From a virus: a stretch of 64,000 nt of DNA. A program made the translations under genes and the position numbers. Of the stretch, positions 3,874 to 54,415 are shown piece by piece (positions within the stretch are counted from its first letter, which is position 1; each line of letters begins with the position of its first letter). The DNA lies in the IMG/VR virus record IMGVR_UViG_3300045988_123818. One strand, given 5' to 3'. The notes beneath the pieces are model-generated. The model made no database searches. It saw only the letters and a program-made list of their open reading frames with translations, and was not told the origin of the DNA.

Positions 3874-6012
3874 TTATATTGATGCCTCTGTCTTCACTCC
3901 GTCCGAATGTCCTCTCAGTCCTTCGTCTGTTCTCCACTTAGGCATTTCCATTTCATGTGTCGATACATATAGGGCTATGGCTGTTGACATCAGTACGTCG
4001 TCATGATTGCCCGAACCATCGATGTTTCCAAGCGAACCGTCCTCTTTCCTTTCGTAGATACGTAGCTCATGATACATTTCTGTGTCTGGCTCATGCCAGA
4101 GTCCATCATCCACAAAAGCCTCAAGGTTATCTATCAGCCAGCCTTTCGTTATTTTATTGGTCTGGAATCCATACTTGGCAAGCACATTGCCCGTCGTGTC
4201 CTCAGGCGACGAGCGCCTCTGGTACAGGTTGGGATAGTAGTCCGCTATCTCATTGATTATAGAGCCAAAGTGGTCGCCCTCGGTGTTGTTGTTCTTCTCG
4301 CGGTCGGCCGTGTTGCTCTCTATCACAAGCAGCGCATCGTCGTAATAGTGAGCAAGAGCTGCTGCTTTCCACGCAAGTACGTCATGTCTGCAATGTCCTC
4401 TGTATCGGGCTACCACACGTGGCTTATCCTTCATTGATGGCATCATGCCCATTCTGTCAAGCACGGTCATTACGGTATAGTCCGAAGTGGACGACTTGCC
4501 TCCAATATCCACGCTCACCACATATCTGTCTGCTACATGCAATATATTGTTGTTTGGCAAGCTCCATATCTTCAACTCGCCTTCTCCGTCTTCCCTTATC
4601 TTTATCTTTGCATTCTTTATAGCCTCCGTCGATTTCTCACCAGTGGTTACAATGTCTGCCATGTACTTAGGCTTCTTTACCTCGCCCTGCCTTAGGTCGT
4701 CTATTGAGTATGGGTTAAATACGAGTTTGCCCGAGTTTCTAAATGCCTCTTCCTCGTCGATAGGGGCCTCAGTCGCACAGAATGCGTGTGTCTTAAATTT
4801 GTTTCGGTAGTTTCTATACCAGTTGATTGCCTGGAAACAAGCTCCCTTTTCCCACATTCGCCAAAAGAATTTGCCTGTCTCTCTATATCCCTTGGGACAG
4901 GTTGAGCGGCCTTTGTTCTTTAGCAGCCACATAGCAAACTCCCTCTCGTCCTCCACTGGCTCCATGTCGTTCTCAATGATGAAGCAGGGTATGAAGATGA
5001 ATGCGTATGCGTCATTGTTCGATGGGTCCATTGCCAGTTGGCAACGGTCATAGAAGAAGCCCGAAGTTCCTCGTCCTGTTGACTCAAACACCTCTACGTT
5101 GTCTTCTTTGTTATGTATGCCGCCCGAAATTGACGAGATTACGCCTTCTGGGTCATGTTCTGGTGTCTTCTTCCAATATGCCACCTCCGAATAGTGAGCA
5201 CAGTGGAAGTTGTTACCACGCACGGCATCAAAGTTATCGAACGAGGCTACCGTCAGCGTCGAACGTCTCAACGCCTTGTTGCCATCTGTCACAATAAAGT
5301 CGTCGGGTGAGTTTTCGTATGGCGATAGCCTCAACTGTGTTCCTGGGTGTCCTATCGTCCATCCTTTCTGTCTTTCCACCGCCTTTCGGTACATCGCCTT
5401 AATCTTCTTCGATGTTCCTTTCACCTGCGACAGAACAATAGCGTTCCAACCGTCATGCCGAAAGTCTTGAATCCACTTAATATACAGCTGCGTCAATGTC
5501 GAGCCACCCCATTGTCGTGCCTTTAGGATTACCACACGTATTGCCTTTTTCTTGTGTCTCAGCTCCTCAAACAGATTGATAAGTCTTCGCTGCGGATAGT
5601 TAAGCCTGAACGGTATCATTTCACCTGATACCTTGTCCTCAATCTTATCCGTCACGAGCAATGCAAACTCTGGGTCTTCTCTGAATCTCACCTTGAATAT
5701 CTCAAAGGTCAGCAGCTTTCTTAGCTTCTGTGTGTCTTCCGAATCTTCGTCATACTCCTTGTGAAGCACTTGTATTAATACTTCTTTCATCGAGCCGAAA
5801 TGCTGTAGGTTTTTATACAGCAGGGTTCTCATGCACTCCTTCGGTACATACATCTTCGGAATGATGAAGTCTGGAATCTCAAGACATACTCTGTTCTTAA
5901 AATCATAACAACCCACACCTGTCCACGGGTCATACTCACCGAAAATTTCATCATATCGTTTCTTATTTTCGGCAAGCAATTTATCTATGTCAAGGTCGGT
6001 TATTGTCGTCAT
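3874..6012 (-). CDS. terL: terminase large subunit
   Basis: KARQWGGST resembles a Walker A motif. HYSEVAYW resembles Walker B. The RNaseH-like nuclease motifs VVSVDIGG and NHDDVLMSTAIAL are present. The 712-aa size fits. Confidence 0.85.
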   Translation of the reverse strand: MTTITDLDIDKLLAENKKRYDEIFGEYDPWTGVGCYDFKNRVCLEIPDFIIPKMYVPKECMRTLLYKNLQHFGSMKEVLIQVLHKEYDEDSEDTQKLRKLLTFEIFKVRFREDPEFALLVTDKIEDKVSGEMIPFRLNYPQRRLINLFEELRHKKKAIRVVILKARQWGGSTLTQLYIKWIQDFRHDGWNAIVLSQVKGTSKKIKAMYRKAVERQKGWTIGHPGTQLRLSPYENSPDDFIVTDGNKALRRSTLTVASFDNFDAVRGNNFHCAHYSEVAYWKKTPEHDPEGVISSISGGIHNKEDNVEVFESTGRGTSGFFYDRCQLAMDPSNNDAYAFIFIPCFIIENDMEPVEDEREFAMWLLKNKGRSTCPKGYRETGKFFWRMWEKGACFQAINWYRNYRNKFKTHAFCATEAPIDEEEAFRNSGKLVFNPYSIDDLRQGEVKKPKYMADIVTTGEKSTEAIKNAKIKIREDGEGELKIWSLPNNNILHVADRYVVSVDIGGKSSTSDYTVMTVLDRMGMMPSMKDKPRVVARYRGHCRHDVLAWKAAALAHYYDDALLVIESNTADREKNNNTEGDHFGSIINEIADYYPNLYQRRSSPEDTTGNVLAKYGFQTNKITKGWLIDNLEAFVDDGLWHEPDTEMYHELRIYERKEDGSLGNIDGSGNHDDVLMSTAIALYVSTHEMEMPKWRTDEGLRGHSDGVKTEASI

Positions 6013-10363: not shown

Positions 10364-10423
10364 ATTTCTATCTTACGTCATTGTCTATCAGCGCAAAAAT
10401 ACTCTAAATGACAGCGCGAAATG

Positions 10424-35638: not shown

Positions 35639-36430
35639 CTACACTCCCGTCACATTCTTCAACTTGTCCGAGTATTGGCTATACAAAACCTCGTTCTCGT
35701 TAATCTTAGGAACAACCGAGCCTCCCATAGCTGCCTTGGCTTGTGGGCTTGATACATCAACCTTGCCAGGCTTTGATGCCTTAGGAGTACCATCCAAACC
35801 AGGAGCTGCACTCATCATCGCATTACTCATATTCTGAGCGGCTGCAGCCGTAGTCTCTGCCTGCTGATTGTAAATATCCTCTCTCTGCTTAGAAAGACTC
35901 TGTTCGTTCCTCATGTGCTGATCCGAAACACTCGCCTTTCTCGCCGTGTCATTGGCGCCAATATTCGCAATAGTATTACCCATCGTCCTATTTGCTGCCT
36001 CCTTTGCCATTGCTGTACTCGCGGCTGTTCCACCGCCAACGGCTGCAGCTCCATCCGCCTTACGAATGTAATTGTCCTGAACCTCCTGAGCCCTACGCAT
36101 CAAGTTCTGACCAGCCTTTGTATCCAAGTAGTCCGTATTATACTCCTTGTCATACCAAGCCTTCTCCGCATTCGTGCGATATTTCTGCTCGGCCAATGCT
36201 CTCTTGGCTGCCTTACGCGACTTAAGACCTCCAAACAACGAACTACCTACACTCAAACCTAAACTGGCTGCACCAAGCAAACCTATCATCGGATTATTCG
36301 CGCCCGACAACTCACTAAAGCCTAATGGCAACCTAAAGTATCTGCTAATGTCTGTCATATCTATATCTTTTTTAATAACCATAACTAACATTCTTTCTCT
36401 CCAGTACCTTTTTCTTGGGGAATATAACAT
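35639..36430 (-). CDS. hypothetical protein with an N-terminal Gly-rich hydrophobic segment (start uncertain)
   Basis: Long ORF. The first ATG at 36430 lies inside repeat unit 1, so the internal ATGs at 36391, 36382 or 36358 are more likely starts. Confidence 0.7.
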   Translation of the reverse strand: MLYSPRKRYWRERMLVMVIKKDIDMTDISRYFRLPLGFSELSGANNPMIGLLGAASLGLSVGSSLFGGLKSRKAAKRALAEQKYRTNAEKAWYDKEYNTDYLDTKAGQNLMRRAQEVQDNYIRKADGAAAVGGGTAASTAMAKEAANRTMGNTIANIGANDTARKASVSDQHMRNEQSLSKQREDIYNQQAETTAAAAQNMSNAMMSAAPGLDGTPKASKPGKVDVSSPQAKAAMGGSVVPKINENEVLYSQYSDKLKNVTGV

Positions 36431-36623
36431 TGACCCCCCTTTCCGGTAGTACCTTTTCCAGGAAATATACTAACGACCTCCTTTCTGTGGAGTACCTTTT
36501 CTGGGGAAAATGATGATGACCTCCTTTGAGAACAGTACCTTTTTATACCTATGCTTTTATCTACTATAATTCGCAGCCAGTACCTAAGCCCCCACCCCCT
36601 TTGGGTCGTTCATCATCCACCTA
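36403..36623. repeat. five tandem 43-45-bp direct repeats, each starting AGTACCT
   Basis: AGTACC occurs at 36403, 36448, 36491, 36534 and 36579. Units 1-3 share AGTACCTTTT...GG.AA.AT...GACCYCCTTT. Units 4-5 are degenerate. Confidence 0.75.
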
Positions 36624-37448
36624 TGCCTCATCGCTTCCTTATCCTCGCCATCATGCCCTAACCTCTCCAACACGTCAGCACTAACCTATCCTCCCATATC
36701 ACCCACCATGCCACATACCACTCATGCCACTATCGCCACCCCTCCACATCATCAAGAGCAATCATCTTTCCCTCGTTCTCTCTACCATGCGTCTACCAAA
36801 GCCACTTTGTAACCTCCTAACTCACTATCTATCAGTCATTTACCCCTTTGGGCTATGACCCCATGAGGGTCATGTTTCAATCGCTTCGATATTTTGGACG
36901 CATCTTAGACATGGCTATAGGGTGCACATAGAACAAGGGAAGAAGCCCAATACCCCAAAAGAAGCCTAAAAGGTCCTTAGTTGCGTCAAATTTACGGAGA
37001 ACAACAACATCTTTTTCCGTATTTCGTCATGTCACAATTTTTTACTTTCCCTCACCAATCCCTTTATCGGGCACTTAATACCAAAAACCGACATACAGAC
37101 TAATTTGTTTGGTCTAACCCCCGTAATTTTTGTGACCACCTAAAAGGATAGAGGAAATTTAGAACAACTCAAAGGCATATAGATGTACGCACGAAAAACC
37201 ACTTTTGTAACAAAAAAGTCAAAAGAAGACAAAACAAAGAGTTGCAAAGGTCAGTAAAAACGGCTTACAAGTCGGAAAAACACGGAAAAATCACAAAAAC
37301 ACGCCTTATACGCTCAATAATGCGCACAAAGCACCTCACCGCATAAACACAAAAAGCCACTCCTGTGAGGATAGAGTGACTTATATATATAATATAGGAT
37401 AAAAGGTGTTTATCTGTATTGGATAAAGGGAGAACAATGGGGAGATAA

Positions 37449-43021: not shown

Positions 43022-43142
43022 CCGTAAATTTTTATTAACTTTGCAAAACAGAAAGGAGGAATCCATTATGAACGCTAAAGAATGGTGCATAGTAATAGTA
43101 TTTATCTTAGCTTTGATACTTGCCTGTTAGGGCATAACCAAT

Positions 43143-43176
43143 GGCGAGTCATGACAATCTTGTGGCTCGCCTTTTC
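43143..43176 (+). terminator. rho-independent terminator
   Basis: ggcgag pairs with ctcgcc, followed by ttttcttt. A 19-aa TM mini-ORF (43068-43127) with an AAAGGAGGA sequence lies just upstream. Confidence 0.5.
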
Positions 43177-49928: not shown

Positions 49929-50063
49929 TTAAAGATTACCTGATGTTCCATCCCAAGAGTAAACAAACTCTCCTAAGGATTTCCAACCTAAACAAATTTC
50001 TCCATGTTTTCTATAATCACAAGTATTATAGCTTTTACATTTAGAGCAATCTGGCTTACTCAT
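49929..50063 (-). CDS. 44-aa Cys-containing mini-protein
   Basis: Hand-translated as MSKPDCSKCKSYNTCDYRKHGEIC... Has an 8-nt overlap with the upstream gene's end. Confidence 0.45.
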   Translation of the reverse strand: MSKPDCSKCKSYNTCDYRKHGEICLGWKSLGEFVYSWDGTSGNL

Positions 50064-50565
50064 CTACAACCTCCCAATCTTCCGCAAATACATCAGATGA
50101 GGAAGGAACCCAAGAGTCTGCTCTACCATCTGGATTGATGATAAGCATCTGATTAGTGTAGTCAATGTGAGGATTCTCACGACTCATCAAGATATTCTTG
50201 GCAGACTGAGGGAGTGACTGCATATTTGGGATGATGTCAGCTTCAATGTGTGAAGGAACCTGCTTTACGATAAACAATCCCTTACCATTCCATCCCTTGC
50301 GTCTTACAGCAAGACCAGCCTTCAGTAATTTAATAGCACCACCGAAGTTAACAGAACCTATTTCAGAATAGGCTTCCTCAAACACACTCTTAGGAGACCA
50401 AGACTTATATCCGTCTTTGTACTCTACTAAGTAGCCATCTTCCTCAACGGTTGCTGGCTTCAGTTCTCTACCAAGCACTTTCTGTGCTTCTGTCATAGTC
50501 ATAGGCTCTGCCATAATGACCTTCATACCAATAAACTTTTTCATATTATTTATATTTAATCCCAT
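50056..50565 (-). CDS. DUF2829 (Tad2/MW1434-like) protein with an N-terminal extension
   Basis: FGGAIKLLKAGLAVRRKGWNGKG...SWVPSSSDVFAEDWEVV matches the DUF2829 pattern. The N-terminal EDGYLVEYKDGYKSWSPKSVFEEAY is a common fusion partner. Confidence 0.8.
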   Translation of the reverse strand: MGLNINNMKKFIGMKVIMAEPMTMTEAQKVLGRELKPATVEEDGYLVEYKDGYKSWSPKSVFEEAYSEIGSVNFGGAIKLLKAGLAVRRKGWNGKGLFIVKQVPSHIEADIIPNMQSLPQSAKNILMSRENPHIDYTNQMLIINPDGRADSWVPSSSDVFAEDWEVVDE

Positions 50566-53240: not shown

Positions 53241-53843
53241 TTATTTTCTTAGCGATTTACCTCTGAACACGATTTTCTTAGTTATCGCCCTCAGTCTGTC
53301 TACGGTTCGCTCCCCATATTTCTCCACCATCTTCTCTTGCGACAAATTAGTCGTGAACATCAGCAGCTTGCCTTTCTTCTCCGCCTCGTCTACAATGTCT
53401 GGGAACCTGAGGTTTCTGTTGCCATAATTTACATCCACCGATTCCTTGCCCACATCATCTATATATATAATGTGTTTCTTTACGATGTCGTCGAATTTAC
53501 TGTTCAAGTCTTTCGCGTCATATAGAGAGATTATCTTTCTTGGGAAGTGATAAAAGTTAAACAGCACCGGGAGAATCTTTGCGCCTATCAGCGTTTTGCC
53601 TCTTCCACACTCGCCACAAAGCCACAGGCCACGCCCCTTGTTGTCCGTCAGCCATTCCGCCACTTCCTCGTATTCCGACTGCCATACAGCGCCCTCACCG
53701 CAATAGTATTTCAGCCCGTTACACAGCAACAACTTTGCGTTGTCAATGTGTATGCTTACCTTCTTCGGAGACCCAAAGAAGCCTGTACCTTGCAGCGCCA
53801 GCTCATATTCCTCCCACACGGTTTTTATGTCTTTTCCTACCAT
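53241..53843 (-). CDS. DnaC/IstB-like AAA+ helicase loader
   Basis: Walker A GECGRGKT, Walker B IIYIDDVG, and a downstream sensor region. Confidence 0.8.
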   Translation of the reverse strand: MVGKDIKTVWEEYELALQGTGFFGSPKKVSIHIDNAKLLLCNGLKYYCGEGAVWQSEYEEVAEWLTDNKGRGLWLCGECGRGKTLIGAKILPVLFNFYHFPRKIISLYDAKDLNSKFDDIVKKHIIYIDDVGKESVDVNYGNRNLRFPDIVDEAEKKGKLLMFTTNLSQEKMVEKYGERTVDRLRAITKKIVFRGKSLRK

Positions 53844-54415
53844 GTTTCTTCGTTTTTAAATTCATCCTTCTCCTTATGATATATCATTCCGATGTCCTGC
53901 GAAGTCTTACGCGACAACTTCCTTTCGTCATCGTTCTTCTTCCACCTTACCAATCTCTTTGCTATCTCAAACGTCTTTTCCTTCTCAAAGCGCATCTTCC
54001 TACCTCCTTCTTTTACCTCTGTCCAATAGTCGTAAAACTCCGCAAGCATTGGTCTTGGATATATCTCGCCGAATGGTTTGAGCTGCATTCCAAACGCCAA
54101 CTTTCTCTCTTTAAGTTCCTGCTCGGGTGTCCGTTTGGTGTCCGTTTGGTGTCCGCCGACGCTATCTAACCCCTTGGGCTTCAGTGAGATAAGTGTCCGT
54201 TTGGTGTCCGTTTGGTGTCCGTTTGAATATAGAACCTTTAGATCATACAGTTCCGTGAGATACCTGCTTGTCGTTGGTCTTGTAAGTCCAAACCGCTCGC
54301 CTAATTCCTTCATTGACACGTCACATTCACCAGCCTTACCGCATTTCCTCTTGATGTAGATGTACATTCCTATCTTCACCAAGTCAAGGTCAAGTATCTC
54401 ATCGGGAATAGTCAT
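53837..54415 (-). CDS. replication initiator candidate (winged-helix N-terminus) containing internal iterons
   Basis: Lies upstream of and overlapping the loader gene. The N-terminal LGERFGLTRPTTSRYLTELYD looks like an HTH. The repeated HQTDTKRT is encoded by the iterons. Confidence 0.6.
   Translation of the reverse strand: MTIPDEILDLDLVKIGMYIYIKRKCGKAGECDVSMKELGERFGLTRPTTSRYLTELYDLKVLYSNGHQTDTKRTLISLKPKGLDSVGGHQTDTKRTPEQELKERKLAFGMQLKPFGEIYPRPMLAEFYDYWTEVKEGGRKMRFEKEKTFEIAKRLVRWKKNDDERKLSRKTSQDIGMIYHKEKDEFKNEETW
54127..54225. repeat. 11-bp iterons GTGTCCGTTTG in two phased clusters (2.6 and 3 copies)
   Basis: Copies at 54127, 54138 and 54149 (partial), and at 54193, 54204 and 54215. The cluster offset is 66 bp, which is 6 x 11. 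Confidence 0.8.

Follow-up and report, generated by a model that had tools for sequence, protein, structure and literature searches.

We analysed a tandem array of short repeats in IMGVR_UViG_3300045988_123818, a viral DNA of 64,000 nt from IMG/VR (referred to below as the window), where the array stands immediately before an operon that includes the gene for a 4970-aa polyvalent protein. The window was assigned to a phage because a portal protein, a terminase-like open reading frame (ORF), RecT, an SbcC-like protein and others are present. The nearest cultured relatives of the portal protein belong to three Bacteroides phages (34-38% identity); no DNA similarity to deposited phages was found, and the product of the first gene of the operon gave no tblastn match among them. 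Judged by its A-rich leaders lacking a Shine-Dalgarno (SD) sequence, its intergenic TAnnTTTG boxes, its Bacteroides phage kin and a matching contig of Leyella (Prevotella) stercorea, the host is a member of the Bacteroidota, and the phage is a gut phage of Prevotella type.

All genes neighbouring the array lie on the minus strand. In their direction, a gene for an XRE-type helix-turn-helix (HTH) protein (38175-37882) is followed by the gene for a 125-aa membrane protein, two GC-rich hairpins, about 1.1 kb without credible ORFs, and the array; after the array come a T7 gp14-like gene, ORFs of 135 and 482 aa, and the gene for the polyvalent protein, which has ddrB-ParB, SNF2-helicase and LPD38 domains. 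The two hairpins look like terminators of the 125-aa gene, which encodes a variable membrane protein and is present in only 8 of 30 relatives. From the distal leader to the first gene of the operon, the features are as follows.

36987-36994, minus strand: putative -7 promoter box TAAATTTG (TAnnTTTG) of the Bacteroidota type, 636 nt upstream of the gene start
36855-36873, minus strand: hairpin ATGACCC-TCATG-GGGTCAT, its stem invariant and its loop variable in the alignment, with no U-run after it on the sense strand
36590-36850, minus strand: G/A/T-rich, C-poor tract (sense strand G 42%, C 8%) with several GGAGG motifs
36579-36608, minus strand: unit 5, GGGGGTGGGGG-CTTAGGTACT, first in the array and having only GGTACT in common with the other units
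36542-36571, minus strand: interior of unit 4, the 30-mer AATTATAGTAGATAAAAGCATAGGTRTAAA, matched by an exact 20-25-mer in every relative fetched and occurring once in the window
36491-36533, minus strand: unit 3, GTTCTC-AAAGGAGGTC-ATCATCATTTTCCCCAG-AAAAGGTACT, with a 9-nt extended SD (36527-36519) that no canonical start codon follows
36448-36490, minus strand: unit 2, CCACAG-AAAGGAGGTC-GTTAGTATATTTCCTGG-AAAAGGTACT, with AGAAAGGAGGT (36486-36476), likewise followed by no canonical start codon
36403-36447, minus strand: unit 1, ACCGG-AAAGGGGGGTC-AATGTTATATTCCCCAAG-AAAAAGGTACT, containing ATG 36430 and missing in many relatives
36359-36402, minus strand: terminal partial unit and proximal leader, GGAGAGAAAGA-ATG(36391)-TTAGTTATGGTTATTAAAAAAGATATAGAT
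35639-36358, minus strand: first gene of the operon (239 aa), with a weak match to T7 gp14, an internal virion protein (PF24072, E = 7e-5, under the curated cut-off)

Relatives were collected by a protein-guided scan, two exact-pattern scans of viral contigs and one metagenome scan, which together yielded 118 loci; among these, 56 distinct versions of the region are represented. The main ATG of the gp14-like gene keeps a fixed place in every one of the 56, exactly 24 nt 5' of conserved RLPLG codons and behind an A-rich leader, and comparison of these sequences indicates that the conserved gene start in the window is ATG 36358. A first-pass annotation, made by a model from the letters of the window alone, had suspected the start at ATG 36430 of being spurious; this was well founded, as that ATG lies inside a unit that many relatives dispense with, and the start of the first gene was corrected from 36430 to 36358.

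Anatomy of the array

A pattern search of both strands of the 64-kb window found ten matches to AGTACCT, five of which form the array on the plus strand at 36403, 36448, 36491, 36534 and 36579 (spacing 45, 43, 43 and 45 bp), exactly where the first-pass annotation had placed them. At the first four of these sites (spacing 45, 43 and 43 bp) the longer string AGTACCTTTT is exact. The GACCYCCTTT strings that the same annotation had assigned to units 1-3 were also recovered, at 36475, 36518 and, with one mismatch, 36432. No further copies of the array motifs are present elsewhere in the window.

Tandem Repeats Finder, run on the window, did not report the array because the interiors of the units diverge. 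Pairwise alignment revealed that units 1-3 are about 70% identical (30-32 of 43-46 positions), a score that none of 500 shuffles reached; these three units are true homologues. Units 4 and 5, on the other hand, have just the terminal GGTACT in common with the other units. The array is therefore made up of three full units, two GGTACT-terminated segments of other content, and a sixth, partial unit that enters the leader of the gene.

On the coding (minus) strand, the array begins with a G-run and CTTAGGTACT, continues with unit 4 as GGCTGCG-AATTATAGTAGATAAAAGCATAGGTATAAA-AAGGTACT, and then follows a unit consensus of GGTACT-N5-6-AAAGGAGGTC-N7-(ATA/ATT)TTTCC-N3-5-AAAAGGTACT. The repeat family D1 aligns 36388-36412 with the unit junctions; since these junctions are matched by the partial unit at the start of the gene, the units are seen as copies of the initiation region. 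Inverted repeats of at least 8 nt were sought inside and between the units (36390-36630), and none was detected.

The 30-mer within unit 4 is the best-conserved block of the whole 1.1-kb non-coding region. On the plus strand it reads TTTATA-N17-TATAAT, which agrees with the sigma-70 consensus at 10 of 12 positions, and most relatives have TTTACA and agree at 11 of 12; only two sites in 128 kb score as high as 11/12. This sigma-70-like match faces away from the operon, into the C-rich strand and toward the hairpin at 36855-36873; the host sigma factor is not known to use the sigma-70 consensus. The idea that the 30-mer is an attP core was rejected, as its single bacterial match is a phage-like assembly contig of Leyella stercorea that carries the whole array and the gene, not a host attB.

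Conservation of the array among relatives

All 56 versions share one grammar: a G- or C-run with CTTAGGTACT comes first, then the invariant 30-mer and between one and three complete units, and at the end a GGTACT with a further SD-like core behind it. The unit spacing of 42-45 bp is held in all lineages, although the architectures differ (45, 43, 43 vs 45, 43, 43, 45) and unit 1 is absent in many versions. The strand that carries the SD-like strings is the sense strand of the operon in every variant (56/56). The array is 97-100% identical in phages whose adjacent gp14-like coding sequence is 86% identical, and it is kept across the clade down to 64% protein identity. Judged from these comparisons, the array is under purifying selection and is a real, conserved, lineage-specific cis-element.

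Two local variations were seen at the distal end. In L010-L029 the G-run GGGGGTGGGGG (36589-36602) is exchanged for its reverse complement, CCCCCACCCCCC, between identical flanks, and some lineages have a second copy, CCCCTACCCCTTAGGTACT, as a unit. At the proximal end, an extra ORF of about 90 aa is inserted between the array and the gp14-like gene in five relatives (L020, L026, L129, L156 and L167) and persists as a decayed remnant in three others (L004, L148 and L158), which makes the position immediately 3' of the array a hotspot where small genes come and go.

The array is confined to one of two clades. In the sister clade (L031-L080) the synteny is kept, with the HTH gene, a terminator, a non-coding region of about 850 nt and the gp14-like operon, but there is no GGTACT array; the non-coding region contains no extended SD, and a canonical TATATTTG box stands some 45 nt 5' of the ATG instead. 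Given that the clade with the near promoter has neither array nor extended SD, the array goes with the long-leader arrangement described below. The XRE-type, repressor-like HTH gene is mosaic, with 35-94% identity among phages whose arrays are 97-100% identical. The idea that the array contains operators for this HTH protein was discarded, as HTH alleles fall to 35-49% identity while the array stays identical.

A probable long leader with extended SD strings

The TAnnTTTG motif is the sigma-ABfr consensus (PMC7366714). The -7 box at 36987-36994 has a homologue in eight diverse relatives, reading TATTTTTG, TATCTTTG, TACCTTTG or TATATTTG, with TA and TTTG invariant and the two positions between them variable. 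All relatives examined have it, at a distance of 636 to 759 nt from the gene, and in most of them it is the sole such box within about 700 nt. No terminator-like site was found between this box and the array, nor any minus-strand ORF of 40 aa or more between 36431 and 37264. The box at 36994 is the probable start of a long sense leader. Within it, the C-poor tract is 93-95% identical in close relatives, and distant relatives keep its composition but not its sequence. Further upstream, in the distal part of the non-coding region, phased T-tracts (CGTGTTTTTCC at about 10 bp) occur on the minus strand at 37273-37303, and several minus-strand blocks at 37000-37300, for example TCGTGCGTACATCT, GGGGGTTAGACC, CCCGAYAAAGGGATTGGTG and GACGAAATACGG, are conserved in both clades.

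Folding analysis gave z-scores against shuffled sequences of -0.86 for the sense strand of the array, +1.57 for its antisense strand and -1.14 for the upstream leader, so that the array RNA is not stably folded. Among 21 unit variants no compensatory pair was found, and their consensus fold reaches only -2.2 kcal/mol. A search of Rfam was negative both at gathering thresholds and at E <= 5, and a tRNA search was negative too. On the weak z-scores and the lack of covariation, a structured RNA was rejected; an unfolded array RNA fits an accessible binding platform.

The array units carry, on the sense strand, long complements to the 3' tail of 16S rRNA. In unit 2, AGAAAGGAGGT extends over 11 nt and is the longest such complement in the window (128 kb on both strands), and unit 3 has 9 nt; both reach the nine consecutive base pairs or more that are typical of the extended SDs of Bacteroidia (rpsU/rpsR type). 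Here the 16S tail was taken as ACCUCCUUUCU, with the last three nucleotides assumed for this host. The suggestion of the first-pass annotation that the coding-strand string is a perfect SD-like sequence was therefore borne out, as was its remark that the genome otherwise uses A-rich leaders without one: an SD-like core of at least 4 nt precedes only 16 of 67 ORFs in the window. The string of unit 2 is identical to the SD test oligonucleotide 5'-AGAAAGGAGGU-3' used with Flavobacterium 30S subunits (PMC7797042). It is very unlikely that a conserved 10-mer would equal an extended SD by chance.

Such strings are of particular interest in this host lineage. The sequence ACCUCCUU is universal in Bacteroidetes 16S rRNAs (PMC3155529), but Bacteroidia ribosomes hide the anti-SD by means of bS21, bS18 and bS6 and ignore ordinary SDs, whereas extended SDs of 9-13 bp do initiate translation when bS21 is absent or displaced (PMC9976891, PMC13000453). 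Strong SDs are found before rpsR in 66% of Bacteroidia and are common in the order that includes Prevotella (PMC7797042). No credible tblastn match to a phage-encoded bS21, bS18 or bS6 was found in the window.

The internal and terminal copies of the module differ in what follows the SD. Units 2 and 3 have no ATG, GTG or TTG at 3-11 nt and are thus SD-like sequences of a presumed 5' untranslated region (UTR) without a usable start, as in STAB-SD elements; the internal copies of the window have ATA or ATT where a canonical start would be, and they keep the SD. Across the relatives, 32 of 104 internal modules have a start codon at this distance, which is about chance, but in all 56 variants, which cover about six independent architectures, an ATG, GTG or TTG stands 3-11 nt beyond the terminal SD-like core. 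In the window, this core is a GGAG placed 7 nt 5' of ATG 36391, which opens a mini-ORF in frame with the gp14-like gene; in L008-type relatives the mini-ORF is a separate upstream ORF (uORF) of 12-16 codons that overlaps the main ATG. The encoded peptides are conserved neither in sequence nor in length (MLVMVIKK..., MVIGFDNFYYGRC, MFTVLACWVYEVVFL and MCN in different lineages), as expected for regulatory uORFs. Because the mini-ORFs differ wholly between lineages, it is probably initiation that is conserved and not a peptide. L108 and L111-L114 differ in the length of a homopolymer (T7/T8) some 30 nt 5' of the main ATG, and this difference switches an SD-led mini-ORF (MFTVLACWVYE...) between a separate uORF of 15-18 codons and an in-frame N-terminal extension of the gp14-like protein.

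Only one other intergenic extended SD in the window stands ahead of a start codon. It belongs to a self-contained mini-gene on the plus strand (43036-43160) with a TAACTTTG promoter box, the 10-nt extended SD AGAAAGGAGG and ATG 43066, whose product is a hydrophobic peptide of 20 aa, MNAKEWCIVIVFILALILAC; a GC hairpin with a T-run follows.

A search of viral contigs for GGTACT-N5-6-AAAGGAGGT as dispersed copies of the module yielded mostly single chance matches in unrelated, presumably SD-using phages, and multiple copies were found in this family only. Tandem SDs of the form AAAGGAGGT-N25-40-AAAGGAGGT were also sought as other arrays of this kind and set aside, being mostly coding Lys-Gly-Gly repeats with a period that is a multiple of 3; rare non-coding examples with a period of 34-44 bp are present in L298, L302 and L368. 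Two further interpretations were set aside. The plus strand of the unit (GTACC...ACCTCCTTTCT) resembles 16S helix 45 plus tail, but beyond the SD complement just a 5-mer is common to both. In GGTACTGGCTGC, read as a sigma-54 promoter, the GG-to-GC spacing is 8 nt and not 10.

Possible functions of the array

We tentatively favour the view, with a probability of about 0.4, that the array consists of tandem duplicates of the operon's own extended-SD translation-initiation module, which lie in a long leader (about 630 nt) and act in cis on the mRNA. The operon would be transcribed from the conserved TAnnTTTG promoter at 36994 through the untranslated leader. In each module the SD is preceded by AAAAGGTACT and a spacer of 5-6 nt, and the extended SD AAAGGAGGT(C), with 9-11 nt of 16S complement, would pair with the anti-SD of 30S subunits, a pairing that in Bacteroidia would need a long SD helix displacing or excluding bS21 (possibly bS18). 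The bound 30S subunits may provide standby or loading sites for the terminal mini-ORF and, through coupling, for the operon; the mini-ORF ends near the real start of the gp14-like gene, overlaps it or is fused to it in frame. By analogy with STAB-SD, bound subunits may also protect the long, otherwise bare leader against nucleases and Rho. The number of complete units, which varies from one to three and each of which has a GGTACT at its end, would drift by unequal recombination between units, and selection would keep the SD cores of internal copies as 30S binding or standby sites.

Several points weigh against this interpretation. We infer the leader, its promoter and any 30S binding from the DNA sequence, and the host 16S tail past ACCUCCUU is assumed. 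The terminal module of the window, from which initiation would take place, has a weak SD core only (GGAG) and is the weakest of the array. Neither AAAAGGTACT, the most conserved motif, nor the conserved C after GGAGGT is accounted for by anti-SD pairing. A STAB-SD mechanism in the literal sense would need a 5'-3' exonuclease, and the list of RNase homologues of B. thetaiotaomicron in PMC7366714 does not include RNase J. Finally, a protein-binding array at the DNA level would be equally compatible with the constant period of about 43 bp (four helical turns) and with the invariant 30-mer.

The closest precedents are two elements of bacterial mRNAs, the cry3A STAB-SD and the extended SDs of rpsU and rpsR in Bacteroidia. 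STAB-SD was reportedly described by Agaisse and Lereclus in 1996 as a 5' mRNA stabiliser of cry3A. In the Bacillus thuringiensis gene it is an SD-like sequence of the 5' UTR, with a promoter at -558 (PMC4113751). The array resembles it in having a non-initiating, SD-like 16S complement in a 5' UTR, a distant promoter (-558 in cry3A, -636 here), a long leader and proposed 30S binding. However, cry3A has a single copy in a Firmicute with SD-reading ribosomes and RNase J1, whereas the array has two to four tandem copies in a host with a sequestered anti-SD, and a model Bacteroides has no listed RNase J. With the rpsU/rpsR extended SDs, through which bS21 and bS18 are autoregulated (PMC7797042, PMC9976891, PMC13000453), the array shares a 16S complement of 9-13 nt in an SD-poor lineage, a unit 2 string equal to the AGAAAGGAGGU oligonucleotide, and a terminal SD-like core at the usual spacing before a start codon. 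Those elements, in contrast, belong to host ribosomal-protein genes, with one SD directly before the AUG, while the array is phage-borne and tandem, mostly lacks a start codon after the SD, and in the window has its weakest copy at the terminal position. A more distant parallel is offered by the SAS/ESAS of Cluster K mycobacteriophages, conserved asymmetric motifs with a ribosome-binding site (PMC3203893). Both are sense-strand motifs just upstream of start codons, although SAS are dispersed before many genes and the array motif is tandem and found at one locus only.

A bolder version of the proposal, which we consider unlikely, is that multiple extended SDs have evolved in the leader of the phage's largest operon as a platform for engaging the normally sequestered anti-SD of Bacteroidia 30S subunits. 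Long helices incompatible with bS21 (possibly bS18) would then restrict expression of the ejection and giant proteins to one ribosome state, or would convert and capture ribosomes for the phage. If true, this would be the first viral use of the anti-SD sequestration mechanism, to which the only exception understood in any depth is that the ribosomal proteins concealing the anti-SD regulate their own synthesis.

More generally, a gut-phage lineage in which strong selection maintains two to four extended SDs would offer a natural means of learning when and how Bacteroidia make the anti-SD available. These SDs lie in the presumed leader of an operon for injected proteins, including the 4970-aa polyvalent protein. 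They would likewise be informative about the control of very long late operons by phages of these bacteria.

The strongest alternative, although somewhat unlikely in our judgement, is a regulatory element at the DNA level, in which phased sites about four helical turns apart would bind a conserved phage or host DNA-binding protein controlling one or more promoters in or near the 30-mer, either the operon's own or the sigma-70-like antisense one, whose -35 box abuts unit 3. The 42-45-bp spacing kept constant in all lineages speaks for it, as do the position of units 1-3 exactly upstream of the plus-strand TTTAYA-N17-TATAAT, the status of AAAAGGTACT as the best-conserved element without a translational rationale, and the exchange of the G-run for its reverse complement, which DNA recognition would tolerate and RNA recognition would not. 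Yet dyad symmetry of at least 8 nt is absent from the units, their motifs are found nowhere else in the window, the mosaic repressor-like gene beside a constant array is not the cognate binder, and Bacteroidota RNA polymerase does not use promoters of the -35/-10 sigma-70 consensus (PMC7366714). Moreover, a DNA site need not be an exact extended SD on the sense strand with a start codon after its last copy. If the array were a protein-binding site, it would be a compact, lineage-specific regulatory element of abundant Prevotella/Leyella phages.

The array might also be a functionless by-product of slippage or unequal crossover at a mosaic junction of early and structural modules, its units being kept similar by recombination and hitch-hiking. 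The variable number of complete units (one to three), the mosaic flanking genes and the gain or loss of small ORFs just downstream in some lineages would all be in keeping with such an origin. We regard it as quite unlikely, given that the array is better conserved than the neighbouring coding sequence, that internal SD cores persist across deep lineages although the positions around them change, and that at least one full unit is present in 56 of 56 variants.

It is distinctly improbable that the units are tandem weak promoters, each with a degenerate -7 box (TATATTTC) derived from the sister clade's TATATTTG, from which nested transcripts would start just upstream of the SDs. This idea draws on the sister clade, where TATATTTGCCCTCGAAA lies about 45 nt before the ATG, on the TATATTTCC-TGGAAAA that the array units have at the equivalent place, and on the lack, in the array clade, of a canonical box nearer than 636 nt. 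However, the units read TATATTTC, TATATTCC or TCATTTTC rather than the -7 box of Bacteroidota sigma-A, for which the canonical match is the one at 36994; the G of TAnnTTTG occurs in none of about 28 distinct unit variants, in which TTTCC is the conserved feature. There is no -33 TTTG, and other late operons of the window use canonical boxes (for example at 10401 and 10512).

The first-pass annotation had proposed a partition centromere like that of the F plasmid, a terminase pac or cos site, or a replication origin, and all three now appear extremely unlikely. They had in their favour the sopC-like period of about 43 bp, a ParB-superfamily domain encoded in the operon, and the position of the array in a conserved non-coding region of 1.1 kb with phased T-tracts. 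The F-plasmid sopC consists of 12 repeats of 43 bp beside sopAB, each with an inverted repeat bound by SopB. Like sopC, the array lies in non-coding DNA and repeats directly about every 43 bp, but only three of its five units are homologous throughout and it lacks the inverted repeats; no sopAB-like pair was found in the scans. The ParB-like match is the ddrB-ParB domain of the 4970-aa polyvalent protein, and a scan of about 45 ORFs, which did not cover all small ORFs, revealed no ParA. The annotation itself had named relatives with normal synteny but no array as a finding that would count against these roles, and the sister clade L031-L080 is such a case.

As for a pac or cos site, which would be expected at the genome termini or at the small-terminase gene, the array lies at neither, as judged from the assembled contigs. 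In six of nine near-full-length relatives the contig ends 24.9-28.9 kb from the gene, no common end falls in the region, and the terminase and portal genes are 26-32 kb away (terminase-like ORF at 3874-6012). A terminus at the array was rejected, as the ends of truncated contigs do not coincide and other contigs continue through them and through the array region. The recurring ends, which lie upstream of the gp14-like gene in contigs of 69-75 kb (L001-L030), suggest fixed genome termini near or beyond window coordinate 61-65 kb.

As for an iteron-type origin, no initiator gene lies near the array, and the adjacent HTH gene is mosaic. The best candidate for a replication origin in the window is instead at 54126-54225, where two clusters of three perfect 11-bp direct repeats (GGTGTCCGTTT) lie about 40 bp apart. 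These iterons are inside a winged-HTH ORF (53837-54415, minus strand) that is followed by an ORF for a STAND/AAA-like NTPase (53241-53843), a layout that matches the classical one of iterons within an initiator gene. The centromere, pac and origin annotations were removed from the array.

Type III antitoxin RNAs (ToxI, 36 nt; CptI, about 45 nt) are made of near-identical repeats that form pseudoknots, with a terminator and a gene of the ToxN family behind them, and pseudo-ToxI arrays are carried by phages. That the array encodes a decoy or antitoxin-like repeat RNA of this kind, or a sponge for an RNA-binding factor, processed to units of about 43 nt, is extremely unlikely: it has tandem sense-strand repeats of similar length (43-45 nt) upstream of a gene, in variable copy number and with an A-rich tract in each unit, but the units are only about 70% identical, they show no pseudoknot, conserved fold, covariation or Rfam match, and what follows is not a terminator and a ToxN-like gene but the T7 gp14-like gene.

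Elsewhere in the window, on the minus strand at 50056-50565, an ORF contains a domain like that of Tad2 (Thoeris anti-defence 2; E = 6e-19). A restriction-site explanation for the GTAC of the array was dropped, since GTAC is not depleted in the window (179 observed vs 214 expected). Other palindromic tetramers are strongly depleted in the window as a whole (CTAG, 2 vs 119 expected; GATC, 31 vs 177), with GGCC and CCGG at 0.3-0.4 of expectation, a pattern consistent with restriction avoidance.

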